A stretch of 64,000 nucleotides of DNA from Candidatus Omnitrophota bacterium (GTDB lineage Bacteria > Omnitrophota > Gorgyraeia > Zapsychrales > Fredricksoniimonadaceae): NCBI GenBank assembly GCA_028865345.1, contig JAGWKL010000008.1, positions 9,291 to 73,290 on the forward strand. The letters are read 5' to 3'. A program made the position numbers and the translations under genes. The notes under the pieces are model-generated. The model was given only the letters and a program-made list of their open reading frames with translations, was not told the DNA's origin and did no database searches. Positions 8,165 through 59,891 of this stretch are shown here, in pieces (position 1 is the first letter of the stretch; every line of letters begins with the position of its first letter).

Positions 8165-8318
8165 AATTTATTTGTAAGTCCATATTTTATATATAGTTGT
8201 AATGTATTGTGGTTTTGCCCCTTGTATCTTGTCATGAGACGTGTTATCTTTTCTTTATTCAGGTAAGCGTTTTCTTTGGCCGGATCAGCCGGCACTCACA
8301 GTTGTTCCTCCGGGCGCT

Positions 8319-11300
8319 ATGTTCAAAAGACCGTTAAGTCTGCTCATTATTTTTGCTTTTGTTTTAACATCCATAGGCCCTCTTTGCCCTGTTCCATGCT
8401 CTGCAGCAGTGGATGGATTAGGCCTGCCGGCGCCTGGGACCATGGTCAATTTAAGCCCGGCCTACCAACCGGTCATCATCAGAGGTTTGACCGTCCATAA
8501 AGACAACCCTTTCTTGTTCGACTTTATCGTGGATACCGGCCAGGATCACATGTCCGGAGAGCCTTTGAAAAAAGAAGGCGAAAAGCTCATCAAGTATTTT
8601 TTAGCCTCCCTGAGCATCCCTGACAAAGACGTATGGGTCAACCTCTCACCTTATGAGAAAGACAAGATCATTCCTGAAGTTTTAGGCCGGACGGGTATGG
8701 GCCGCGACCTTCTGGAGGAGGACTATATCCTAAAGCAGGTCACAGCTTCTCTCATTTATCCGGAGAGGCAATTAGGCAAGACCTTCTGGGACACGGTGTA
8801 TGCCAAGGCCCGGGCTATGTACGGCACAACGCAGATACCGGTCAATACCTTTAACAAGGTCTGGATCATGGCAGACAGGGCGCAGGTTTATGAGCATGGG
8901 CAAACCGCCTTTGTGGTGGATAGTCATTTAAAGGTGATGCTGCAAGAGGATTACCTGGCCCTGAAAAATCACGAAGGAGCGGTCGCGCATCCCCAAGGGG
9001 CGAAGCAATCACATTCCCTTGTCTCTCAAATTGTCCGTCAAATCATCCTTCCCCAACTTGAAAAAGAAGTCAATACCGGCAAGAACTTCGCTAAGCTTAG
9101 ACAAATATTCAATTCCATCATCCTGGCCAACTGGTACAAGAGGAATTTAAAGCAGGCGCTTCTCAACCAGGTATATGCCGATAAAGGGAAGGTCAAAGGC
9201 ATAAATTTAAACGATCCCAACGTCAAGGAACGGATTTATGAGCAATACCTGAAAGCCTACAAAAAGGGGGTCTTCAATTATATTCAGGAGGACATTAACG
9301 CCTCCGATGGTGCAAAGATACCAAGAAAATATTTTTCAGGAGGTATCAATGAGGGCATGGCTGCTGATCCTGCCATAACCCATGATGCGGCGGCTTTGGC
9401 CGCATCCTTGCCCCGCAGGACCATGGTTGATTTTATGACTGAAGCTTCCCCCTATACGGATAGGGCCATGAGTCATCGGAATGCTGTAAAGACCAAAACG
9501 GATTACAGGACAAAAAAGGATTTGGAGTACCCGTCGATCGAAGATCAGATAAACATAATAGCGGGGGTCAGAAGGTCTGTTATGGAACATCCTCCTGTTA
9601 AAGGGCAAAATTCAAAATACAGAATCCGCATCCTGAGCGCCCAATTCCTTGAGAAAAAAAGTGAGACGGGCTATTTGGAAAGTTTATACAGGTCCCCCGC
9701 ACTGGAGCAATTAAGGGAAAAAGGATACGCATTGAAAAAGGACGACAACGGGCTTTATCTGGAACGTAAGATTATTTCCCGGGAAGATCTATTGCGTATT
9801 TTCGCAGGGGTCTTGGGGAAATTACGGAGGGATTATTGGAAGGATGTCGTGCCCTTATATGGGCAGGGCAAGCTGTCTGAGAAAGATGTCCGCAGGGTTT
9901 CTTATCCGTCGGCCGGCATGGGATTGATTAAAGATGCCGGTGCTGTTTTTGATAACGGCAGGCTCTTGACATCCGGCCGGGATATTCAACAAGTTATTGG
10001 TAAAAATGCTTTTGTGCTTTGGCCGGCGGACGGTCAGAAAAATCTTTCATTTGCACTGGTCTTTACCGGCCGGGGCGGGGCGGTTCTTGACGCGGCGAGG
10101 GCATCTAAACCCGATGCCGCCATGACCGGCAGGGGCAAAAAGACCCATCCTCTCTATTTGAAAGTGCAGTCTTTATTTTCACAACCGCTTCAATTTGCCG
10201 ATGCGGTGGCCCGCGTCCCCGGGAAAAATGGAGGGGATGAAATCCGTATTAAACGCGAAAGTCCGGGCAGTTATCTTGTTCAACGGACCCTGCTTCCCGG
10301 CCCCGTACGCATAGAAAACAGCCAGGATAAGAATTTTTCTTTTAACTTTGCAATACGGGGTGGCCAATTCGTTATAGCTACCAACGCCATGGCCCCGGAT
10401 AGCGTGAAGTTTGTTTTTGAGCAAAAGAAACTGGAATGGGGGCCGGATCAATCCGTCAAAGAGGAAGTAACGACTAAAAAAAGAGAAATAAGAAATCTCA
10501 GCCTTAATCACTTTAACAGGCTGGGCGGCCTTTCCAATGGAGAGAGGATAGAAATTAATTTCGGCTACTACACACAGAAAATAGTTTTGACCTACAGGGA
10601 TGGGAGTCTGTTTTTGGAAAAGCCCTTTGAGTTGTCATCGAGGAATTCGATTTCTTTTGAGAGAAAAGACGGGACATATATATTGCGGGCTTCGGCGCAT
10701 TCGCATTTTGATCAGGCGAACATCAAAATTTATGCTGATACGGAATTTTCTTACAGGCCGATGCTTCCGGGCGGGCAAGCCGACCGGGCGATGACAAGCG
10801 CTCAAAAAAGGGTCGAAAGCAGTTTGCAGGACTTGATCGGGGAGGGTTTAGGGGTCATACACCCGGAAATCCTGGGCATTCTATCCATACCGGCCGTTTT
10901 AAAGGGGGGGAAAATAAGGGATGTGGAAAGCATTTTTGTTCATTTGAGGCAATTTGTTCCGATAACCCAGGAAGGTAAAATGTGGAACTCCACATTAAAT
11001 GACGAAGAGGCTGCTTTTTTAACTTGGGCGGTGATGATCAGAGACCAAACTAAAATTGAGAAGCTCTTAAGAAATTTTTATGGCAAATTCTCTTTAGGAT
11101 TGAATAGAAGAATATACCGTAGCGAAGCCGTTTTTTTGACCGTGGCTGCGGCGATCAGGGGCGGGGATGACGCTGCCGGTGAGGTGGAAAATGATTTTGA
11201 ACGGTTTGTGACTCCGGTGGAGAAAGGCGGGTATGGGCTGAAAGGACATTTTGCAAGTCTATTGACGATCGCGGCGCAATTGATGGAAAGAAAAGATATT

Positions 11301-11789
11301 CAGCGGCTCATGGATGTTTATGATTATTGGCATGTGAAAAAACAACAGGGACCGGAAGTGGCGGCGGTGTTGTCCATGGCGACGGTGAGTAAGGGGGCGG
11401 ATATTGAAAATGGGGAACATGAGATTAAAGGCGACTTTAAATTTAAGAAGAAATTAAGTTTGGACGGCAGGGAAGTGGAGCTTAATGAAAAAGCCCGTTC
11501 CTTTCTTGCCCTTGCCTGCGCCTTGGCCGATACCTCCGACGCGGCGATGACGGGGGCCCCTTTCGTTCCTGCCATGGCCGCCCAAAATCCCGGCGGTATC
11601 GATTTGAGCACCTCCGGCGGCATGCAGTGGAAAATCCGCAAGGATGGAGCCGGCGTCGAAATGAACATCGACCCTGCCATGGCGGCACGGATACGGGCGC
11701 GCGGCATCGACGGGCTTTCGCCGGTTATTTTCAAGATCACGCCGGTTACCGACGTCTGGGTGCTGGCCGGCTTGAAAGCCCCCGCCTGA
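8319..11789 (+). CDS. Giant secreted protein A (about 1156 aa mature). Unassigned family; paralog of the protein at 55660-59340.
   Basis: Signal peptide MFKRPLSLLIIFAFVLTSIGPLCPVPCSAA. About 330 aa after it align with paralog B (PGxMVNLSP, KYFLASLxIPD, VNLSPYEK, MGRDLLExDYILKQ, VNTFNKVWI, SHLKVMLxEDYLxLK, KKGVFNYIxED, IPRKYFxGG). The ORF stays open back to a GTG at 8241, but the ATG at 8319 starts the signal peptide. Confidence 0.7.
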   Translation: MFKRPLSLLIIFAFVLTSIGPLCPVPCSAAVDGLGLPAPGTMVNLSPAYQPVIIRGLTVHKDNPFLFDFIVDTGQDHMSGEPLKKEGEKLIKYFLASLSIPDKDVWVNLSPYEKDKIIPEVLGRTGMGRDLLEEDYILKQVTASLIYPERQLGKTFWDTVYAKARAMYGTTQIPVNTFNKVWIMADRAQVYEHGQTAFVVDSHLKVMLQEDYLALKNHEGAVAHPQGAKQSHSLVSQIVRQIILPQLEKEVNTGKNFAKLRQIFNSIILANWYKRNLKQALLNQVYADKGKVKGINLNDPNVKERIYEQYLKAYKKGVFNYIQEDINASDGAKIPRKYFSGGINEGMAADPAITHDAAALAASLPRRTMVDFMTEASPYTDRAMSHRNAVKTKTDYRTKKDLEYPSIEDQINIIAGVRRSVMEHPPVKGQNSKYRIRILSAQFLEKKSETGYLESLYRSPALEQLREKGYALKKDDNGLYLERKIISREDLLRIFAGVLGKLRRDYWKDVVPLYGQGKLSEKDVRRVSYPSAGMGLIKDAGAVFDNGRLLTSGRDIQQVIGKNAFVLWPADGQKNLSFALVFTGRGGAVLDAARASKPDAAMTGRGKKTHPLYLKVQSLFSQPLQFADAVARVPGKNGGDEIRIKRESPGSYLVQRTLLPGPVRIENSQDKNFSFNFAIRGGQFVIATNAMAPDSVKFVFEQKKLEWGPDQSVKEEVTTKKREIRNLSLNHFNRLGGLSNGERIEINFGYYTQKIVLTYRDGSLFLEKPFELSSRNSISFERKDGTYILRASAHSHFDQANIKIYADTEFSYRPMLPGGQADRAMTSAQKRVESSLQDLIGEGLGVIHPEILGILSIPAVLKGGKIRDVESIFVHLRQFVPITQEGKMWNSTLNDEEAAFLTWAVMIRDQTKIEKLLRNFYGKFSLGLNRRIYRSEAVFLTVAAAIRGGDDAAGEVENDFERFVTPVEKGGYGLKGHFASLLTIAAQLMERKDIQRLMDVYDYWHVKKQQGPEVAAVLSMATVSKGADIENGEHEIKGDFKFKKKLSLDGREVELNEKARSFLALACALADTSDAAMTGAPFVPAMAAQNPGGIDLSTSGGMQWKIRKDGAGVEMNIDPAMAARIRARGIDGLSPVIFKITPVTDVWVLAGLKAPA

Positions 11790-11908: not shown

Positions 11909-12397
11909 ATGAAAAATCTGGTGCTGGTCGTGGTGGCGGTATTTGTACTGACAACGTTTATCGGCTGCAACAAAAAGAAAGAGCAAGAAGCTTTTGACAA
12001 CGGGGTTTCCACGGAAAATTCAGTTTCTGTTTCTGACAATTCCGCTCAAAATGTTGATATGAGCAACTCTATTCCTGTCGTCGTTGAAAATTCATCGGCC
12101 GCTTCCCAGGAGGTCAGCGAGCCTGCCATGGCCCCCAGTTCCGCGACGGGCACGGCCAGGCCCTCCAACAGTAAACAAATCCAGCAGGCCTTGAAAAACG
12201 CCGGCTTTTACAGCGGCGCCATCGATGGCAAGATCGGGCCGATGACCAAAAGGGCCGTCGAAGCTTTTCAGAAAAAGAACGGTTTGAAAGCCGACGGCAA
12301 GGTCGGTCCGAAAACATGGCAGGTTCTGTCCGGTTATTTAAATAAGGATGCGGAGGTGCCTAATCCTTCCGCCGAGAGTCAGGCCGTCGCGCAGTAA
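11909..12397 (+). CDS. Lipoprotein with a C-terminal peptidoglycan-binding (PG_binding_1-like) domain.
   Basis: Lipobox TTFIGC. C-terminal IQQALKNAGFYSGAIDGKIGPMTKRAVEAFQKKNGLKADGKVGPKTW matches the PG-binding repeat. Confidence 0.7.
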   Translation: MKNLVLVVVAVFVLTTFIGCNKKKEQEAFDNGVSTENSVSVSDNSAQNVDMSNSIPVVVENSSAASQEVSEPAMAPSSATGTARPSNSKQIQQALKNAGFYSGAIDGKIGPMTKRAVEAFQKKNGLKADGKVGPKTWQVLSGYLNKDAEVPNPSAESQAVAQ

Positions 12398-15083: not shown

Positions 15084-15785
15084 ATGTCCAAGAAGAAGAT
15101 CCTCGTAGTCGAAGACGACCGCGATATCAGCGAACTTATTGCCTATAATCTTCAACGTGAAGGTTATGATGTGGCCTGTCTGTACGACGGCGCTCAGGTG
15201 GTGGACTTTGTCCGCAAGCGAAAGCCTGAATTGATCGTCCTGGATTTAATGCTGCCGGAAATCGACGGGATCGAGATCTGCCGTACCCTCAAAAGCGACG
15301 CCTCGACCGGGCATATCCCCATTGTCATGCTGACCGCCAAAGGCGAGGAGGCTGATGTGGTGGTGGGGCTGCAGATGGGGGCGGATGATTACATACCCAA
15401 ACCTTTCAGCCCCAAGGTCCTTGTGGCGCGGATCAAGGCCATCGGCCGCCGCACCTTGGATTTGAAACTGTCTTCCGCGGCGGCCCAGGATATCCGTAAT
15501 TTCGGTGAATTCAACATGGACCTGCTTAAGCACCGTATTTCCTACAAAGGCAGGGAAGTCAAATTGACCTCCATTGAATTTGATATCGTCGAATTCCTTT
15601 CCCGGACGCCCGGCAGGGTGTGGTCCCGCGAACAGATCCTGGACAATGTCTGGAAAGACGGGAAATTCATCATAGACCGCGCCGTCGATGTGCACATCAG
15701 GGGCTTGCGTAAAAAACTTCGGGAGGCTGAGAATTACATCGAAACGGTCAGGGGAGTCGGGTATCGATTTAAGGAAGTTGAATGA
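15084..15785 (+). CDS. OmpR/PhoB-family response regulator.
   Basis: Receiver domain (ILVVEDDRDI...LIVLDLMLPEIDG...KPFSPKVL) plus winged-helix C-domain (VHIRGLRKKL). Closest in pattern to PhoB. Confidence 0.9.
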   Translation: MSKKKILVVEDDRDISELIAYNLQREGYDVACLYDGAQVVDFVRKRKPELIVLDLMLPEIDGIEICRTLKSDASTGHIPIVMLTAKGEEADVVVGLQMGADDYIPKPFSPKVLVARIKAIGRRTLDLKLSSAAAQDIRNFGEFNMDLLKHRISYKGREVKLTSIEFDIVEFLSRTPGRVWSREQILDNVWKDGKFIIDRAVDVHIRGLRKKLREAENYIETVRGVGYRFKEVE

Positions 15786-16966
15786 TCTATCTTCTCTGTT
15801 TTACCGTTGTTTTGGTCGCCCTGCTGGTCTTTTTGCTTTCGCGCCGCTTCTATCAACGCCGCATTTCCCAGATCCGTTATTCCCACGATAATGTCCGTGA
15901 CGATTATCTAAAACAGCTCACCACCTCAAGCGTCCAGCGTGAAAATTTCGAGACCATCCTCTCCAGCATGGTGGAAGGGGTCATTGTCATTGATGCCAAG
16001 GGCAGGATCCAGCATGCCAGTCCCAATTTCTGCCAATTGTTGGAATTGCGTTCCAAAGAGACCCAGGGCAAATTATACTGGGAAGTCATCTGGAACCAGG
16101 AGATCAACGATTCTCTCAGGGAGGCCCTTGCGCATAAGCGGGCCGTCAGAAAGGAGATCGGTATCCTGGATGCGCAGGAATCTTTTTTCAGCATGCAGAT
16201 CTCTCCTGTCATGGGCAAGGAAGACAAGCTTTTGAGTTTGATCGCGGTCTTCCACGACATTACCGAATTAAAGAAATTGGAGAAGGTCCGTACGGAGTTT
16301 GTGGCCAATGTGTCCCACGAATTAAAGACCCCCCTGACCGCCATCAAGGGTTTTGTGGAAACTTTGAGGAATTCCGTCAATGATGATCCTGCCGCCGTGG
16401 CGCGTTTTCTGGACATCATCAGCAAGCAGACCCAGCGCCTGGAGAATCTGGTCAGCGATCTTCTGATCCTGTCTTCCATTGAATCAAGGGAAGTCAGAAT
16501 GAATTTTGTGCCGGAGCCTTTAAGCCCGATTGTCGGTACTGTTGTGGCCTTGCAGAAAAAAGCCATCGAAGCCAAGGGGCATCGCCTCACCGTGGATGTG
16601 CCGGAGAGCCTTCCCAAGGTGTTGGTGGACCGCCAGCGGATGGAACAGGTGTTTTTGAACCTGCTGGACAATGCCGTCAAATTCACCCCGCCCGCAGGGC
16701 AGATCGCTGTCCGGGCGCGGTGGGAAAATCCTTATGTATGCGTTGAAGTCCAAGACAGCGGGGTGGGGATCCCTGCCGAGCACCTTTCACGGGTGTTTGA
16801 ACGTTTCTACAAGATCGATAAGTCCCGTTCCAGGGATGCCGGCGGGACGGGGTTGGGTTTGGCCATCGTCAAACATATCATTTCCGCCCATCAGGGGAAA
16901 ATTGAAGTTGAAAGCGCCGTGGACCAGGGTTCAACTTTCCGTATTTTCCTGCCTTGCCAGAATTAA
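15782..16966 (+). CDS. Sensor histidine kinase, PhoR-like (TM, PAS, HisKA, HATPase).
   Basis: H-box SHELKTPLTAIKGF. N, G1 and G2 boxes (LLDNAVKF, DSGVGIP, GGTGLGLAIV). ATGA overlap with the response-regulator gene. Confidence 0.9.
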   Translation: MIYLLCFTVVLVALLVFLLSRRFYQRRISQIRYSHDNVRDDYLKQLTTSSVQRENFETILSSMVEGVIVIDAKGRIQHASPNFCQLLELRSKETQGKLYWEVIWNQEINDSLREALAHKRAVRKEIGILDAQESFFSMQISPVMGKEDKLLSLIAVFHDITELKKLEKVRTEFVANVSHELKTPLTAIKGFVETLRNSVNDDPAAVARFLDIISKQTQRLENLVSDLLILSSIESREVRMNFVPEPLSPIVGTVVALQKKAIEAKGHRLTVDVPESLPKVLVDRQRMEQVFLNLLDNAVKFTPPAGQIAVRARWENPYVCVEVQDSGVGIPAEHLSRVFERFYKIDKSRSRDAGGTGLGLAIVKHIISAHQGKIEVESAVDQGSTFRIFLPCQN

Positions 16967-52510: not shown

Positions 52511-52560
52511 TTGACATGATATAATCATAGTGATATACATATATCAGAAAGGATATATCA
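52511..52560 (+). promoter_or_regulatory. Promoter plus candidate autoregulatory operator of the vapBC-1 operon.
   Basis: TTGACA, 17-nt spacer, extended -10 TGaTATACA. TGATATA occurs at 52517-23 and 52531-37, and its complement TATATCA at 52540-46 and 52554-60. Confidence 0.5.
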
Positions 52561-52562
52561 TT

Positions 52563-52802
52563 ATGGTGCGTGCTTTAATCAGCTTAAAAGACGAACAATT
52601 AAAGAAAATAGACAGGTTAGCCCGCAAGAAAAAACAATCCCGGGCACAAGTGATCCGTGAAGCCATTGAAGAATATGTTTCAAAGAAGGAAAATGAACCG
52701 ACTTGGGAAGAACTTGTCAGGAAAACCGCGGGAATTTGGAAACATAAAAACATTGATACGGATGCTTATCTTGAAGCCCTGCGTTCGGAATGGGACCGGT
52801 AA
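52563..52802 (+). CDS. vapB: Ribbon-helix-helix (CopG/VapB-type) antitoxin.
   Basis: MVRALISLKDEQLKKIDRLARKKKQSRAQVIREAIEEYV RHH pattern. ATGA overlap with the downstream PIN gene. Confidence 0.7.
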   Translation: MVRALISLKDEQLKKIDRLARKKKQSRAQVIREAIEEYVSKKENEPTWEELVRKTAGIWKHKNIDTDAYLEALRSEWDR

Positions 52803-53173
52803 TGCTTTTATTGGACGCATCCATCCTCATTGATTTTTTAAACAAAATTTCCCAGGCCGTTGATTATTTTTTGGCCATTGATTCACGTCAAGCGGCCATA
52901 TCAGCAGTGACATTAGCAGAAGTCCTGGCCGGCGCCGATGAACAGGAAAAAGCACAAATACTTTTGTTCACCGACAGGTTTCACTTCCTGAACATTGATA
53001 AAGAAACAGCTGTTTTTGCCGCTGATTTGAGGCAAAAACATCATTGGAAATTGCCTGATTCATTCCAAGCTGCGTTAGCCTTAAAACATAACTTAATTTT
53101 CGTTACCCGTAATACCAAGGATTTCAATCCTGCGGTCCATAAATTTGTCAAAATCCCCTATAAGCTGCGCTAA
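52802..53173 (+). CDS. vapC: PIN-domain toxin VapC.
   Basis: MLLLDASILIDFL N-terminal acidic motif. Further conserved Asp residues (FVTRNTKDF). Confidence 0.8.
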   Translation: MLLLDASILIDFLNKISQAVDYFLAIDSRQAAISAVTLAEVLAGADEQEKAQILLFTDRFHFLNIDKETAVFAADLRQKHHWKLPDSFQAALALKHNLIFVTRNTKDFNPAVHKFVKIPYKLR

Positions 53174-55546: not shown

Positions 55547-55659
55547 AGTAGTCCCGCTGCGGCTTGACAAAGACTATTTTATATGGCACTCTTTACTTAG
55601 GATGTGGATGAAGGCGGGAGAGAGGTATGTCCCCATATACCCTGAATATTAAAAAATCT

Positions 55660-58600
55660 ATGTTTTTAAAGTTACGCAGGATCGTTTCTATTGTTATTAT
55701 ATCGGCTTTTATGACCACCTCGGTCAGGACGCCGGCCTGGGCGCAGTCCTCTGTAGGCCTGCTGCCCAATCTGCCGCCTCCGGGGGCGATGGTAAATTTA
55801 AGCCCCGATTTTACGCCTGCCCATCTGATGGGCATTACCATCCATCCCGATAACCCCTTAAAGTTTGATTTCTTGATCGATAATGGCGACCAGGAAATGG
55901 ACAGCGTCCAAAAGCGGGAGGAATATCAAAAACTGGTAAAGTATTTTTTGGCCTCCCTGACCATCCCCGATGGCCACCAGTGGGTGAACCTTTCGCCTTA
56001 TGAAAAGGGACGCATCATCCAGAATGATTTCGGCAAAACACAGATGGGCCGGGATTTGCTGGAGCAGGATTACATCCTCAAGCAGATCACCTCAAGTTTG
56101 ATCTATCCTGAAAGCCGTTTGGGCAAGGAATTCTGGGACAAGGTCTATCAACGCGCCTGGAATGAATACCACACGACCGACATCCCGGTCAATACCTTTA
56201 ACAAAGTATGGATCGTGCCTGACCAGGCCGTAGTTTACGAAAGCGGCGACAGCGCCTATATCCTCCAGAGCCATTTAAAGGTGATGCTGGAAGAAGACTA
56301 CCTCTCCCTGAAAGAACATACGGCCATTTCCTCTTCCGATGTCAATGCCGTTGCCAATGACACCCATGCCATCGGTTCCCAGGTGATCCGCGAGATCGTC
56401 CTTCCTGAACTTCAAAAAGAGGTCAATGAAGACAAGAATTTTGAAAGCCTGCGCCAGATGTACAGCGGGATGGTCCTGGCGACCTGGTATAAAATGGCAT
56501 TGAAGAAATCTCTCTTGGGGATGATTTACGCGGACAAGGCCAAGGTCAAGGGCGTTGACCAGGACCCCAGGACCAACCAATTAATATACAACCAGTATTT
56601 GCGCGCGTTTAAAAAGGGCGTGTTCAACTATATTAAGGAAGATGTGGACAAATTCACAAATGAGGAGATCCCCAGGAAATATTTTGCGGGCGGGTTTCAG
56701 CCCCTGGAGGGGGCTGATGAAATAAGAGATATAGGCCAGGCGCAACAGGCGGTTCAGGAGAGTAGAAGCAACCCGCTGCCCCGGGAGTTTGTCGTCAAAG
56801 CCAATCAGGGAGAGAATGTGGCGAATGTGGCGCCAACCATCAACACTCTTCTTGGAGGCCGGCCCATTTCTGTTGACTGGCAGAAGCCGGAGAATTTCAA
56901 TGTTGCCGTTGTTGATTTAAGCCAGGCAAACCAGAACCCCGGTGGAGTTTCCGGCAACGCCACGACTGTCGCGCAGAGTGAAGCGCAAAAATTTGTAAAC
57001 TTTATGCAGGAGAGGGAACTCCCGGTGCCGGCCAATCTGCCTGCAGACCAACTGGCCAGGGCCAAGCAGGGGGAAAAGAATTGGCAAATCAGCAATGCCA
57101 TGCGCCAGCAGCTGCAGCAATGGTACAAGGGCAATGATCAGTATGATCCCATGGTGGATTCCATTTTTAAGCATTTGGATTATGAATACGATCAGGCAAC
57201 GGACAATTTTAAGGTTGTCTATTCCAATCCGGCGATGACGTCCAACGGAGAAATAACTGACGCGACTTTTTCCAGAATTTCCCGCCGGTTGAACCAAAAC
57301 CCTGCTATCAGCCGGTTATTGGAGAATCCCATTACCCGGGATTTCTATGATAAGACACTTAATTCCAATTTGACCAATCCCGGGAAATTGCAGCGTATCC
57401 GTCAACGGTTGGATGATTTAAGGCCGGGTTTGGGGCAAACGGTGGATTCCATCGTTGCAGAGGTCCAGGCGGATCAAAGTGCGAACAGGGCGATGACCAC
57501 GGTCCTGGTCATTGATGATGATCCCGTGATGCTGGATATCAATAAAGCGGTATTGTCCCGTGCCGGTTATAATGTTTTAACCGCCCAGACCGAGCAGGAA
57601 GCTGAAACATCTTGGCAGGAGAATAAAGATAATATAGGCCTTATCCTTAGCGACACCCATAACACAGGGCAAAAGGATTGGCCTGATTTGGTGAAAGGAT
57701 TCGTGGCGCAGAAAAATGTCCCTGTTCTTGCCACCAGCGGGTTGGCAACCCAGCAAGCCTGGCAGGGGATCACCGATCATTTTCTTCCCAAGCCGTATTC
57801 CATTCATGTTTTAACCTCTGCAGTTCAGGGAATTTTGTCCGCCAATCAGCCTGCAGTTGATCAGGCCATGGCGTCAAATACCGGGAGTTGGTTGAAGGAG
57901 AAGATCTTGCCGCTGGTAGGAGCGGTTGCGGTAGGGGGCGTCGTTGCGGGGGCAATAAGCATGCCTTCCTATTTACATCAGCGGGAATTAAACAAGATCT
58001 CTTTGGTCCAACCCGGACAGATTGCGTCTATAAACAACCAGGCGGCAAGGGTCGTGGTCAATACCGGCGGAGTGGGTGTCGTCATTACCCAGCCGGGCAG
58101 GCCGATCAGGATCATCAGTGTCAATCCCAACAATGTTGCCGACGTTGCTCAGCAATTGTTGCAGGAATATCCGGCCGGCATCAATAATGCCGTTATCCAT
58201 GTTTTTGCCGATGGTGACGGTGAACGGGGAGCGGGCAATGCATTGTCGATGGCTTTGTTGGGTAAAGAGAATATCTCTGATCATCACATTTATCTTGAAC
58301 ATGCGGCGCCGTTTAATTTGGTGGCTCATCCCCTGGGCAGCGGAAGCGATTTTGTAAGGATTGAAAATGGGGACGGGATGGAGCATCATTATGTGGAGAC
58401 AAAGGGTGTTTTAATTCAGTTGCCCAAGAACAATCCCAACCCGGCCATGGCCTCCAACAGCAAAATAAATCGGATCAGAGAAAGGCTTGTGACGGCAGCC
58501 ACGCTGGCCGGCATCTCAGCGGCCGCGCTGTTTCTTGCTCCCGGGGCCGCAAAGAATGTCCAGATAGCCATCAAGGAACATAGAATTCCTTTGAAAAGCG

Positions 58601-59340
58601 GGATCCAAACCGGAGAGGGTGCGTATACGGTCAATGAAAATGAGGCGGCGGTCGCTTTTTCAGTTGAAGGTCAGCCCAATTTTGCTTATGCAGGCGTTGT
58701 AGGGACAAACGATTCTCAAGAAATACAGAACCTTACTAAAATAAAAACGGATTTACGGCAAAAATACCCCCACACCCAAATTTACATGGATTATTGGACC
58801 TATGGGCGGATGACTGAAGACGGAAGGTATATGCAGGATCACGCGGGCAATATCATAAGCAGCATACCGGCGGCCCCCGGCTTTGAGGTCCGGGTCCATC
58901 ATCTTCCCTTTGAACCGACGGAGCCCAGCGCTCCTCTTCCCTATGGATTTTACGTCAAGGGGCCGATCATTCATGTGGATACCCAAACCTTGGGCACCAC
59001 CGGCGGCTATTGGTATGCCAATAACACCGGGAACGGTTTGACGCATGCCCCGGCAGGTTATACGGATAATGCCATGGCGATCCGGCAACAAACGAACAGC
59101 GAGTCAGCGTTAATCGCCGAATCCCTGACTAAAAAAGGTGGTATCGACTTAAACGCCGCCAACCTGAATTTATTCATCAAACGCGACGGCAGCGGCGTGC
59201 CGCTGCCCTGGGCCCAGCAGGACATCTCCCTGTTTAAGAACATCCAGGGTTTTGTTCCCCAAATCGTCGAGATCCGGCCTGCCGTCGACATTTCCGTCAT
59301 CAACGAACTGCAACAGAAGCTGCAATCTTTCCAGAATTAA
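55660..59340 (+). CDS. Giant secreted/membrane protein B (about 1226 aa). Paralog of protein A, with an internal CheY-like receiver domain and two hydrophobic segments.
   Basis: Signal peptide MFLKLRRIVSIVIISAFMTTSVRTPAWA. About 330-aa N-domain colinear with protein A. Receiver-like segment at about 57495-57840 (TVLVIDDDP...GLILSD...LATSG...LPKPYS). Hydrophobic helices at about 57904-57966 and about 58500-58560. C-terminal GGIDL...KRDGSGV module. The ORF is open back to an ATG at 55627. Confidence 0.7.
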   Translation: MFLKLRRIVSIVIISAFMTTSVRTPAWAQSSVGLLPNLPPPGAMVNLSPDFTPAHLMGITIHPDNPLKFDFLIDNGDQEMDSVQKREEYQKLVKYFLASLTIPDGHQWVNLSPYEKGRIIQNDFGKTQMGRDLLEQDYILKQITSSLIYPESRLGKEFWDKVYQRAWNEYHTTDIPVNTFNKVWIVPDQAVVYESGDSAYILQSHLKVMLEEDYLSLKEHTAISSSDVNAVANDTHAIGSQVIREIVLPELQKEVNEDKNFESLRQMYSGMVLATWYKMALKKSLLGMIYADKAKVKGVDQDPRTNQLIYNQYLRAFKKGVFNYIKEDVDKFTNEEIPRKYFAGGFQPLEGADEIRDIGQAQQAVQESRSNPLPREFVVKANQGENVANVAPTINTLLGGRPISVDWQKPENFNVAVVDLSQANQNPGGVSGNATTVAQSEAQKFVNFMQERELPVPANLPADQLARAKQGEKNWQISNAMRQQLQQWYKGNDQYDPMVDSIFKHLDYEYDQATDNFKVVYSNPAMTSNGEITDATFSRISRRLNQNPAISRLLENPITRDFYDKTLNSNLTNPGKLQRIRQRLDDLRPGLGQTVDSIVAEVQADQSANRAMTTVLVIDDDPVMLDINKAVLSRAGYNVLTAQTEQEAETSWQENKDNIGLILSDTHNTGQKDWPDLVKGFVAQKNVPVLATSGLATQQAWQGITDHFLPKPYSIHVLTSAVQGILSANQPAVDQAMASNTGSWLKEKILPLVGAVAVGGVVAGAISMPSYLHQRELNKISLVQPGQIASINNQAARVVVNTGGVGVVITQPGRPIRIISVNPNNVADVAQQLLQEYPAGINNAVIHVFADGDGERGAGNALSMALLGKENISDHHIYLEHAAPFNLVAHPLGSGSDFVRIENGDGMEHHYVETKGVLIQLPKNNPNPAMASNSKINRIRERLVTAATLAGISAAALFLAPGAAKNVQIAIKEHRIPLKSGIQTGEGAYTVNENEAAVAFSVEGQPNFAYAGVVGTNDSQEIQNLTKIKTDLRQKYPHTQIYMDYWTYGRMTEDGRYMQDHAGNIISSIPAAPGFEVRVHHLPFEPTEPSAPLPYGFYVKGPIIHVDTQTLGTTGGYWYANNTGNGLTHAPAGYTDNAMAIRQQTNSESALIAESLTKKGGIDLNAANLNLFIKRDGSGVPLPWAQQDISLFKNIQGFVPQIVEIRPAVDISVINELQQKLQSFQN

Positions 59341-59378
59341 AATTCTCATCTTTTTTTGTTTTTGTGTTATATTCAAAT

Positions 59379-59630
59379 ATGCCGACTATTTTGGAAATTT
59401 TAGGATGGAGATTGTTTTTTTATTCCAACGAAAATGACGAGCCAATTCATATCCATGCTCGAAAAGCGAGTATGGAATGTAAATATTGGATTGATATTAA
59501 AGGGTTTGACATCAGTGAGGCGTATTCTTTTGGTTTAAAGGAGAAGGAAAAAAGGCAGATTCGTCGTATCATTTTTGATCATTTTGATTATATTGTAGAA
59601 CAGTGGAGTGAATTTGAGAGGAGAAAATAA
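59379..59630 (+). CDS. DUF4160 protein (first half of a DUF4160/DUF2442 pair).
   Basis: MPTILEILGWRLFFYSNENDEPIHIHARKASMECKYWID matches the DUF4160 core (MP.I...G..I..Y..DH.PPHFHA). The track start at 59364 is also possible. Confidence 0.65.
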   Translation: MPTILEILGWRLFFYSNENDEPIHIHARKASMECKYWIDIKGFDISEAYSFGLKEKEKRQIRRIIFDHFDYIVEQWSEFERRK

Positions 59631-59891
59631 ATGAAAGCAATCCATAAGATCCAAAAGATAGATTTCTCAGGTTCCCAAATGAGGTTGAAAGTGGACGGCA
59701 AGGAAGTTAAAGTTAATTTAACTAAAACGTCTTCAAGGCTGCTTAAAGCTTCCAAAAAGGAACGGGAAACGTATCAGATTTCACCTTCAGGTTATGGTAT
59801 TCATTGGCCATTGATTGACGAAGACCTTTCGGTCGATTCTCTCTTAGGGAGTAAGCGTTCTTTTGACCACCCAATGACCCGCCTACGGTGA
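59631..59891 (+). CDS. DUF2442 protein (second half of the pair).
   Basis: C-terminal GYGIHWPLIDEDLSVDSLL matches the DUF2442 conserved end. Its start abuts the DUF4160 stop. Confidence 0.65.
   Translation: MKAIHKIQKIDFSGSQMRLKVDGKEVKVNLTKTSSRLLKASKKERETYQISPSGYGIHWPLIDEDLSVDSLLGSKRSFDHPMTRLR

Follow-up and report, generated by a model that had tools for sequence, protein, structure and literature searches.

The question raised by the present locus is how a CheY-like receiver domain (REC) came to lie in the middle of a protein that begins with an apparent signal peptide, since receiver domains are the textbook cytoplasmic phosphorelay module. The locus was analysed in a stretch of 64,000 nucleotides of Candidatus Omnitrophota DNA (contig JAGWKL010000008.1 of assembly GCA_028865345.1), which is hereafter called the window and is numbered from its first letter. 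The protein in question, protein B, is encoded by an open reading frame (ORF) at 55627..59340 on the forward strand, as are all the features of B given below, and is identical to the NCBI protein KGJ95_05750 of a Candidatus Omnitrophica metagenome-assembled genome (MAG). A preliminary description of this DNA called it a giant protein; at 1237 amino acids (aa), it is large but not giant. What is new here is a receiver domain that occurs as a cassette in an undescribed, apparently exported modular family, in a phylum that is already known for odd long proteins.

The identity of the domain was determined from profile searches and a structural model. A Pfam-A scan of B gave PF00072 (Response_reg) as the sole significant family, at residues 626-733 (57502-57825), where the match covers positions 1-110 of the 111-position profile. 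The score of 31.5 bits (E 2.2e-7) exceeds the gathering cutoff of 30.2 by a narrow margin, and independent support was sought because this margin is small. A phmmer search of B against all PDB chains returned receiver domains only, over residues 623-741, and the NCBIfam matches of B were confined to response-regulator and hybrid-kinase receiver models. AlphaFold2 was run on residues 612-752 with an alignment of 15 related cassettes and the window's own OmpR-type receiver, and the resulting model (predicted local distance difference test, pLDDT, 86.7; predicted TM-score, pTM, 0.82) has the (beta/alpha)5 topology in the order b1-a1-b2-a2-b3-a3-b4-(3-residue a4)-b5-a5, consisting of five strands, four full helices and a vestigial alpha4. 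Both ends of the model are disordered, as expected of linkers. In a Foldseek comparison with the PDB, the top 50 matches were receiver domains or receiver-derived constructs throughout, where the non-native ones were one AI-designed response-regulator-like protein and one receiver-based fusion; the best match was 3jte (E 1.7e-9), and the top 50 had TM-scores of 0.8-0.87 at a root-mean-square deviation of about 1.9 Å. The proposal of a CheY-like receiver in B is thus confirmed by the profile above its cutoff, by the PDB and NCBIfam matches and by the predicted fold. The word "complete" used for it in the preliminary description was slightly generous, as alpha4 is nearly absent. The start that had been given, 57495, is out of frame, and the cassette runs from 57493 to 57867, although the interval 57495-57966 does span the segment that was described.

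The residues of the phosphorylation pocket were assigned by alignment with CheY. The acidic pair is D630/D631, the phospho-acceptor position is D676 in LILSD, S704 in LATSG is equivalent to T87 of CheY, and K722-P723 lie in LPKPY, so that each motif originally read from the letters is present and the active-site quintet (D630/D631, D676, S704 and K722) is complete. F719 occupies the Y106 position, which is that of the aromatic switch. Residues 623-747 of B are accordingly a self-contained CheY-fold receiver cassette with an intact Mg2+/phospho-Asp pocket, and the receiver domain, to judge from these residues, is real and looks functional. The profile, the (beta/alpha)5 fold, the acidic pair, the phospho-acceptor Asp, the Ser/Thr, the Lys-Pro and the aromatic switch are all shared with CheY-like receivers of PF00072. 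However, B differs from them in several respects. Its alpha4 is vestigial, and the remodelled alpha4 face carries a Trp that is specific to and conserved in the family described below; its beta3-alpha3 loop reads SDTxxxGxxW in place of the common D-x-x-M-P-x-x-x-G; and the domain follows a Sec signal and is part of a modular protein free of Cys, with neither an adjacent kinase nor a recognisable output domain.

The last of these differences concerns the genetic context. No cognate or orphan kinase adjoins B, and no output domain was detected in B with Pfam. The only kinase in the window, a PAS-HisKA-HATPase_c protein (15782-16966), overlaps by 4 nucleotides the gene of its own OmpR-type response regulator (15084-15785) and lies 40 kb from B; it belongs to an ordinary two-component pair and is not an obvious partner of B. 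The search for an orphan kinase partner in the 64-kb window therefore ended with none adjacent to B and with the one kinase present already paired. Judged by its surroundings, with no kinase nearby and no output domain, the receiver of B is not placed as a response regulator would be.

The remainder of B was examined through its homologs. A word-indexed homolog search with B gave more than 4,700 matches, which were restricted to the N-terminal ~29% of the protein and had 57-77% identity among the matches listed; beyond this part, the homologs are unrelated between one protein and the next. An exhaustive HMMER scan with residues 38-370 against 1.84 billion cluster representatives yielded 8,015 clusters at 50% identity, 6,168 of them at E <= 1e-30, and among the matches listed the matched region, the N-domain, sits at the N-terminus in 150 of 150. 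In species-representative genomes, at least 572 family loci were found, in multiple copies per MAG and almost all in Omnitrophota. The members observed are 416-2429 aa long and share a layout consisting of a Sec-type signal peptide, an N-domain of ~315 aa, a hypervariable middle made of cassettes, and a C-domain of ~65 aa. B has all four of these features, namely the signal peptide, an N-domain ending in PRKYF[SA]GG, cassettes separated by the motif [DN]xAM, and a GGID[LF]N C-domain, and on these grounds it is one member of a very large Omnitrophota-specific modular family. The architecture that drew attention to B is genuinely unusual but not singular, since REC is one kind among the many exchangeable cassettes that occur across ~8,000 clusters, and the unit of interest is the family rather than B alone.

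A second member, paralog A, lies in the same window at 8241..11789 on the forward strand, where M27 at 8319 is its likelier start. It has the same signal peptide and N-domain, junction-separated cassettes and a divergent C-domain. The earlier remark that A lacks the receiver holds, as a Pfam scan of A shows none, and this difference between the paralogs is a cassette polymorphism. Tandem family genes are common in other MAGs, for example at loci L015 (51-1949, 2004-5753), L022 (3685-5970, 5986-9321), L029 and L031, and some ORFs with a C-domain but no N-domain resemble frameshifted or split members. Many of the MAGs that bear the family are titled "uncultured Planctomycetales" (L001, L005-L007, L009 and others) and a few "Elusimicrobia" or "Elulimicrobium"; because the distribution of the family is otherwise strictly Omnitrophota, these titles are probably taxonomic mis-assignments. 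A phage origin of the family was also considered and was rejected, as just 3 loci occur in IMG/VR and the family is essentially absent from viral contigs.

The conserved ends of the family were compared with known domains. In B, the N-domain comprises residues 40-356 (55744..56694), with PRKYFAGG at its C-terminal end. It has no match in Pfam, NCBIfam or the PDB, and a fold search in BFVD gave no match at E <= 0.001; when its profile was searched against the PDB, only low-complexity huntingtin matches appeared, which fell in the variable part. Residues 105-356 (55939-56694) contain ~70 invariant positions with a single invariant His (H216), and the other invariant residues include S110, S123, S157, D143, D148, D224, E126, E205 and E265; this domain may contain a hydrolase-type active site. 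The C-domain of B comprises residues 1171-1237 (59137..59337) and reads GGIDLN...IKRDG.GVPLP..QQD...IQGF.P.I.EI.PA. The corresponding family pattern, GGID[LF]N..L.IKRDG.GVPLP..QQD...I.GF.P.I.EI.PA, was found in 117 of 120 homologs, at 56-75 aa from the C-terminus. Within the window, the hidden Markov model of the C-domain matches B and A only. No Pfam or NCBIfam model matches this domain, and the profile search against the PDB was empty.

Between the conserved ends, the middle segments of the family proteins, which are unrelated to one another, are divided by the recurring motif D/N-x-A-M. Across 113 complete family proteins, the dipeptide AM exceeds its expected number more than any other (505 occurrences, where 159 are expected; 3.2-fold), and D or N stands two residues ahead of its Ala in 69% of cases. 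The density of [DN]xAM is about 7-fold higher in family ORFs (221 per 104,806 aa) than in non-family ORFs of the same loci (30 per 101,463 aa). In the DNA of the junctions, only the first and second codon positions are fixed and the synonymous positions are free, and Shine-Dalgarno-like motifs precede 9.8% of the junction ATGs, compared with 13.7% of other internal Met codons and 27% of gene starts. The absence of Shine-Dalgarno enrichment and the free synonymous positions together indicate that the constraint on the junction acts on the peptide. Internal translation starts at the junction ATGs were rejected as the primary explanation of the motif on the same two observations, and the restriction to first and second codon positions also counts against the junction as a DNA recombination site. 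Of the blocks of homology that members share, 38% start no more than 5 aa from a junction, compared with 9% for random placement, and 52% start no more than 10 residues away, compared with 16%. This coincidence of block starts with junctions indicates that the junctions delimit the shuffled units. The residue after the Met that starts a cassette is commonly T, S, A or V, as in native N-termini. The [DN]xAM junctions are treated here as candidate proteolytic release sites or flexible linkers.

In B, five junctions were identified, with Met at 537, 623, 748, 941 and 1150 (57226-57237, 57484-57495, 57859-57870, 58438-58449 and 59065-59076); paralog A likewise has five on the forward strand (9459-9470, 10113-10124, 10782-10793, 11538-11549 and 11670-11681). 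The junctions of B divide its middle as follows. Residues 357-622 (56695..57492) hold two variable cassettes without a recognised fold, split by NPAM (534-537) and ended by NRAM (620-623). The REC cassette, M623-A747 (57493..57867), has the junctions NRAM and DQAM on either side. The cassette from M748 (57868..58446) carries an N-terminal hydrophobic segment, behind which lies a domain of ~160 aa without a recognised fold, and the cassette from M941 (58447..59073) carries another such segment, followed by a domain of ~175 aa. A linker (59074..59136) connects the last junction, DNAM at 1147-1150, with the C-domain. When the variable region (residues 366-1165) was submitted to the word-indexed homolog search, only B itself and one generic hybrid-kinase REC were returned, and the cassettes of B other than REC appear to be orphans. 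A short element, for example D[RP]AMAGR[NS][NS]DVTV[IV]H, recurs in some members right after the N-domain (56695-56760 in the window; also in P0015 and P0044), which suggests a semi-conserved first linker or cassette.

The position of these junctions also bears on whether B is a single gene. A chimera, in which assembly or gene calling has fused a small response-regulator gene into a neighbouring ORF, could be imagined because the source is a MAG and the cassette starts with Met. However, the same order of N-domain, REC and C-domain occurs in one frame in independent assemblies (P0002, P0003, P0015, P0044 and others), and the junction motif is in frame and family-specific, which makes a chimera extremely improbable.

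REC is the most frequent recognisable cassette of the family. PF00072 was the commonest precomputed Pfam label among the top 120 homologs (10 proteins), and in a local jackhmmer search of 202 family members, REC-like stretches were recovered from 20 proteins, 28 in total. The Asp equivalent to D57, the phospho-acceptor, is present in 25 of the 28 and the Lys equivalent to K109 in 20; a minority are degenerate and have S-S-D-S-L or S-R-D-S-L at the five key positions. The REC cassette of B is nearest to those of the family members P0002 (92 bits), P0003 (54) and P0044 (48), whereas its scores against ordinary single-domain regulators in related loci do not exceed 26 bits. Its closeness to the family cassettes indicates that it belongs to a lineage evolved within the family and marked by the SDTxxxG..W loop between beta3 and alpha3 and by the conserved Trp of its short alpha4. 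The other recognisable cassettes are J-domain, cyclic-nucleotide (cNMP)-binding, low-molecular-weight (LMW) phosphatase, methyltransferase, M3 peptidase and HATPase_c domains. Where catalytic motifs were checked, they are retained (HPD of the J-domain, HEFGH of the M3 peptidase, and C433 in CSANVNRS of the LMW protein tyrosine phosphatase, LMW-PTP), and these cytoplasm-type cassettes look functional and under constraint. Since the location of the J-domain, cNMP-binding and phosphatase cassettes is as paradoxical as that of REC, the paradox applies to the family as a whole.

The evidence for export comes from the signal peptide and from the cysteine content. The sequence features of residues 1-39 of B (55627..55743) are those of a Sec-type signal peptide: an n-region with the basic residues K9, K10, K15, R17 and R18, an h-region of 13 residues, IVSIVIISAFMTT, and the c-region SVRTPAWA, with predicted cleavage at AWA/Q (39/40; the slash marks the cleavage site). 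Of 120 family members with complete N-termini, 118 show such features, namely a basic n-region with a median net charge of +3, a short hydrophobic core and a small-x-small site such as AYA/Q. The segment is thus predicted to be a canonical cleavable Sec signal, and an h-region of 13 residues is too short for a membrane anchor. Both the cleavable-looking signal and the lack of a further hydrophobic segment ahead of REC, as first described, were recovered, as no hydrophobic segment was found from about residue 38 to 756. With a signal peptide and no intervening hydrophobic segment, a co-linear Sec topology puts REC outside the cytoplasm. In this order, the N-domain, the two first cassettes and REC are outside, residues 760-779 cross from out to in, 780-953 are cytoplasmic, 954-975 cross from in to out, and the rest is outside; the charges flanking the two internal segments fit this order but are not decisive.

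The cysteine content of the family is 0.085%, compared with 1.5% in 14 other genes of the window, which is a depletion of ~18-fold, and the scarcity of Cys extends to the N-domain, the middle and the C-domain alike. There is no Cys in the 1237 aa of B and there are 3 in the 1182 aa of A. The REC cassettes contain no Cys in 3418 aa, whereas 12 ordinary REC domains from the same loci contain 11 in 1421 aa (0.77%), a rate at which about 26 would be expected in the cassettes. Where Cys has a catalytic or lipobox role, the family retains it: P0061, for example, has two cysteines, of which C433, given above, serves as nucleophile in the LMW-phosphatase cassette. Because Cys is kept where it is catalytic, the avoidance reflects selection. 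Exclusion of Cys would be expected of proteins that fold or travel outside the reducing cytoplasm, and the avoidance argues for export of the family.

These two lines of evidence can be set against the possibility that the signal is not used and that B is a polytopic inner-membrane protein, whose N-domain and REC remain cytoplasmic and whose REC is phosphorylated by a conventional kinase. Such an arrangement would remove the chemical paradox, and many long Omnitrophota proteins with regulatory domains are read in one study as inner-membrane-anchored with a cytoplasmic bulk (10.64898/2026.06.07.730766); the charges around the two internal segments of B discriminate only weakly. However, the basic n-region, the 13-residue h-region and the AxA/Q site form a canonical cleavable signal that is kept in 118 of 120 members, a further hydrophobic segment is lacking in 141 of 216, so that these could not be membrane-anchored cytoplasmic proteins, and the avoidance of Cys also speaks against it. 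An unused signal is thus regarded as quite unlikely. The preliminary description had left export and retention as an open dilemma; the exported branch is favoured over the unused-signal branch on account of the family-wide Cys avoidance, which includes the REC cassettes.

The hydrophobic segments behind REC were then considered together with the junctions. The TM (transmembrane)-like helix after REC and the second hydrophobic stretch that had been described are present at residues 760-779 (57904-57963; ILPLVGAVAVGGVVAGAISM) and 954-975 (58486-58551), and both start 12-13 residues past a junction methionine. The M941 cassette begins with MASNSKINRIRER, which holds the basic n-region KINRIRER and leads into the hydrophobic core as h-region and then into APGAA/K; it looks like a complete pre-protein with the n/h/c layout of a signal peptide. 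The two downstream "TM helices" of B look like signal or anchor sequences of embedded pre-protein-like cassettes and not like a sensor-kinase-style layout. Among 216 members, 141 have no internal hydrophobic segment, 57 have one, 13 have two, 3 have three and 2 have four. The even number of internal segments that would be expected if both conserved ends were outside was looked for in these 216 members and not observed as a rule. Internal hydrophobic segments begin within 25 residues past a junction Met in 46% of cases, compared with 12% for random placement, and several of them are followed by a lipobox, such as LALACG in P0016 and AALCSSGC in P0115. To judge by these features, the cassettes resemble whole ORFs from their start Met, with sorting signals of their own, which fits processing at the junctions. 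Such processing could take place within the producer, or else in another cell once the protein has been delivered there.

If it occurs inside the producer, B would be a polyprotein, and its ORF would amount to an operon that lacks stop codons. A cytoplasmic protease would cut between Ala and Met of [DN]-x-A-M, and REC would be freed as an ordinary CheY-like regulator in the cytoplasm of the producer, while the N-domain would be exported by its own signal and the two cassettes behind REC would be exported or inserted by their own signals or anchors. The cassette starts of Met followed by T, S, A or V, like native N-termini, agree with this, as does the start M-TTVLVIDDD of the REC cassette, which parallels MSKILVVDD of standalone regulators in related loci. 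The placement of hydrophobic segments past junction methionines, some with lipoboxes, and the complete signal-peptide layout of the M941 cassette ending in APGAA/K point in the same direction, and the number of internal hydrophobic segments shows no constraint of parity. Cleavage of Omnitrophota giant proteins is already raised in the giant-gene paper, where the cleavage points are given as unknown (10.1101/2023.11.21.568195). However, the avoidance of Cys, with none in 3418 aa of REC cassettes against a rate of 0.77%, is unexplained if the cassettes stay in the cytoplasm of the producer. No protease was identified, the role of the conserved C-domain that ends every member is left unexplained, and cytoplasmic processing would have to compete with a signal peptide that is engaged co-translationally. 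A cleavage specificity of D or N at P3 and Met at P1' is not known to us from any protease. The strongest point in favour of this explanation is the pre-protein-like character of the cassettes and the strongest against it is the avoidance of Cys, and cleavage within the producer is considered unlikely.

Export of the whole protein as a conserved carrier, whose cassettes are cargo or effector modules, is the explanation to which we give close to, though somewhat below, an even chance. In the proposed mechanism, B would leave by Sec through its conserved cleavable signal peptide, and REC would exit the cytoplasm of the producer together with the N-domain. The cassettes would be cargo or effector modules of a common scaffold. 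As REC, J-domain, cNMP-binding and LMW-phosphatase cassettes work only in a cytoplasm, they would most plausibly act in another cell. The recipient could be a host or prey of these putatively episymbiotic or predatory Omnitrophota. There, an exported REC might accept phosphate from foreign histidine kinases or acetyl phosphate as a decoy or sink, or it might instead be a phosphorylation-dependent switch for neighbouring cassettes, and the [DN]xAM junctions would serve as release sites or linkers. Omnitrophota are reported to be ultra-small with predatory or parasitic traits (PMC10066038), and the effector-cassette explanation agrees with a predatory or episymbiotic way of life as reported for the phylum (PMC10066038; 10.1101/2023.11.21.568195). 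A broader conjecture, to which we hold only tentatively, is that thousands of Omnitrophota proteins are "cassette carriers", in which complete pre-protein-like modules, all with a start Met and some with a signal peptide or lipobox of their own, lie in a row from a conserved exported N-domain to a conserved C-domain. The modules would be split at a dedicated processing site between Ala and Met of [DN]-x-A-M, and those of cytoplasmic type, the receiver of B among them, would be released and act in the cytoplasm of another cell or be sorted individually.

Several observations weigh against export of B as cargo or effector carrier. Internal hydrophobic segments occur in 75 of 216 members, and in 60 of these their number is odd, so that simple co-linear Sec export would strand the C-domain on different sides of the membrane between members. 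The signal-like placement of the segments after a junction Met fits processing before export at least as well. Neither the N-domain nor the C-domain detectably resembles a translocation or secretion module, and in 80 loci no delivery machinery, protease or immunity gene is conserved beside the family genes. In addition, we know of no exported or translocated REC effector.

Export might also be combined with the absence of phosphorylation, where REC would be a stable flavodoxin-like scaffold, a metal- or ligand-binding module or a protein-protein interaction module of a surface or periplasmic protein, similar to a pseudo-receiver. The usual output face, alpha4, is cut to 3 residues in B, with the family-specific conserved Trp in its place; some REC cassettes of the family are degenerate (S-S-D-S-L, S-R-D-S-L); no kinase adjoins B; and both the export signals and the Cys avoidance support an extracytoplasmic location. 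However, most of the cassettes, including that of B, keep D-D-D-S/T-K and the K-P cis-proline, which would be costly without phosphoryl or Mg2+ chemistry, and sibling cassettes keep motifs that need cytoplasmic partners (HPD of the J-domain, the catalytic Cys of LMW-PTP). A non-phosphorylated module is therefore a doubtful explanation, about as doubtful as cleavage inside the producer.

The layout of the family can be compared with that of known modular proteins. MARTX toxins carry a variable set of exchangeable cytoplasm-type effector domains between conserved N- and C-terminal regions, with short sites between the domains. The conserved termini of the present family around swappable central cassettes are similar, but the analogy is one of layout only: B and A have no match to models of RTX GGxGxD repeats, the cysteine protease domain or type I secretion in Pfam and NCBIfam, the family has an N-terminal Sec signal and sizes of about 0.6-2.4 thousand aa, and its junction is [DN]xAM, compared with Leu-X in MARTX. 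No sequence relation to the TANFOR-domain polymorphic toxins of Bacteroidetes (PMC7073777) was detected; in contrast to these, no cassette is recognisable as a toxin, Pfam and NCBIfam have no model that matches the C-domain, and no immunity gene is conserved downstream. A sorting domain of the type IX secretion system (T9SS) or a C-terminal toxin with an immunity gene was not found for the family in Pfam, NCBIfam, the PDB and 80 loci. The resemblance to MARTX toxins, T9SS cargo and polymorphic toxins is architectural only, with no defining sequence feature shared.

Polyvalent proteins of phages and conjugative elements reportedly consist of long strings of unrelated domains, are presumed to be delivered into another cell and are sometimes processed (Iyer et al. 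2017). The present family likewise joins unrelated enzymatic and regulatory domains into one long polypeptide. However, it is chromosomal, multi-copy and equipped with a Sec signal, and only the 3 loci mentioned above occur in IMG/VR.

Within the phylum itself, two reports describe long proteins in which domains of cytoplasmic type, PF00072 among them, occur together with signal peptides or TM helices (10.1101/2023.11.21.568195; 10.64898/2026.06.07.730766), and the catalogue of 916 long Omnitrophota proteins in the latter lists the receiver PF00072 (10.64898/2026.06.07.730766). B shares with the Omnitrophota giants ("Archaeovorins" and others) the phylum, the combination of signal or TM segments with cytoplasm-type domains and the question of cleavage. 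The giants have at least 10,000 aa, whereas B has 1237 aa, and its family is sharply delimited by conserved N- and C-domains and a junction motif. A term search of the open-access part of the literature on long Omnitrophota proteins did not find a family of ~1-2 kaa (thousand aa), its N- and C-domains, its Cys avoidance or [DN]xAM.

If REC does travel behind a Sec signal, this would be a new use of the receiver, as a secreted effector, a decoy or an extracytoplasmic module, or would indicate an unrecognised processing step that returns REC to the cytoplasm. The analysis also brings to light ~8,000 clusters of an unannotated family, which is multi-copy per genome and belongs to uncultured and putatively predatory or episymbiotic nanobacteria. 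The junction grammar supplies concrete candidate cleavage points, which the giant-gene paper states to be lacking (10.1101/2023.11.21.568195), and the grammar of the family provides a handle for cataloguing the effector repertoire of Omnitrophota. The cassette-carrier system, if the conjecture is true, would amount to a bacterial polyprotein or poly-effector system, and the cassette grammar could then explain the use of the giant ORFs of 10-150 kaa in this phylum.

The surroundings of the family genes were compared in the 80 loci. No conserved operon partner, whether a secretion system, a protease, an immunity gene or a kinase, was found across them. The recurrent neighbour clusters are of three kinds: ORFs that lie inside family genes in antisense orientation, an ABC-F-like ATPase in 11 loci, and ordinary regulators in 9. 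In the window, the neighbours of B are HemN, URO-D, DUF4160, DUF2442, an MscS-like protein and SulP, where the DUF4160/DUF2442 pair lies directly downstream of B (59364-59630 and 59631-59891). A small peptidoglycan-binding protein (PG_binding_1, 11909-12397) is encoded directly downstream of paralog A. In addition, an ORF of 90 aa (52530-52802) overlaps a PIN-domain gene (52790-53173), an arrangement that resembles a toxin-antitoxin pair of the VapBC type.

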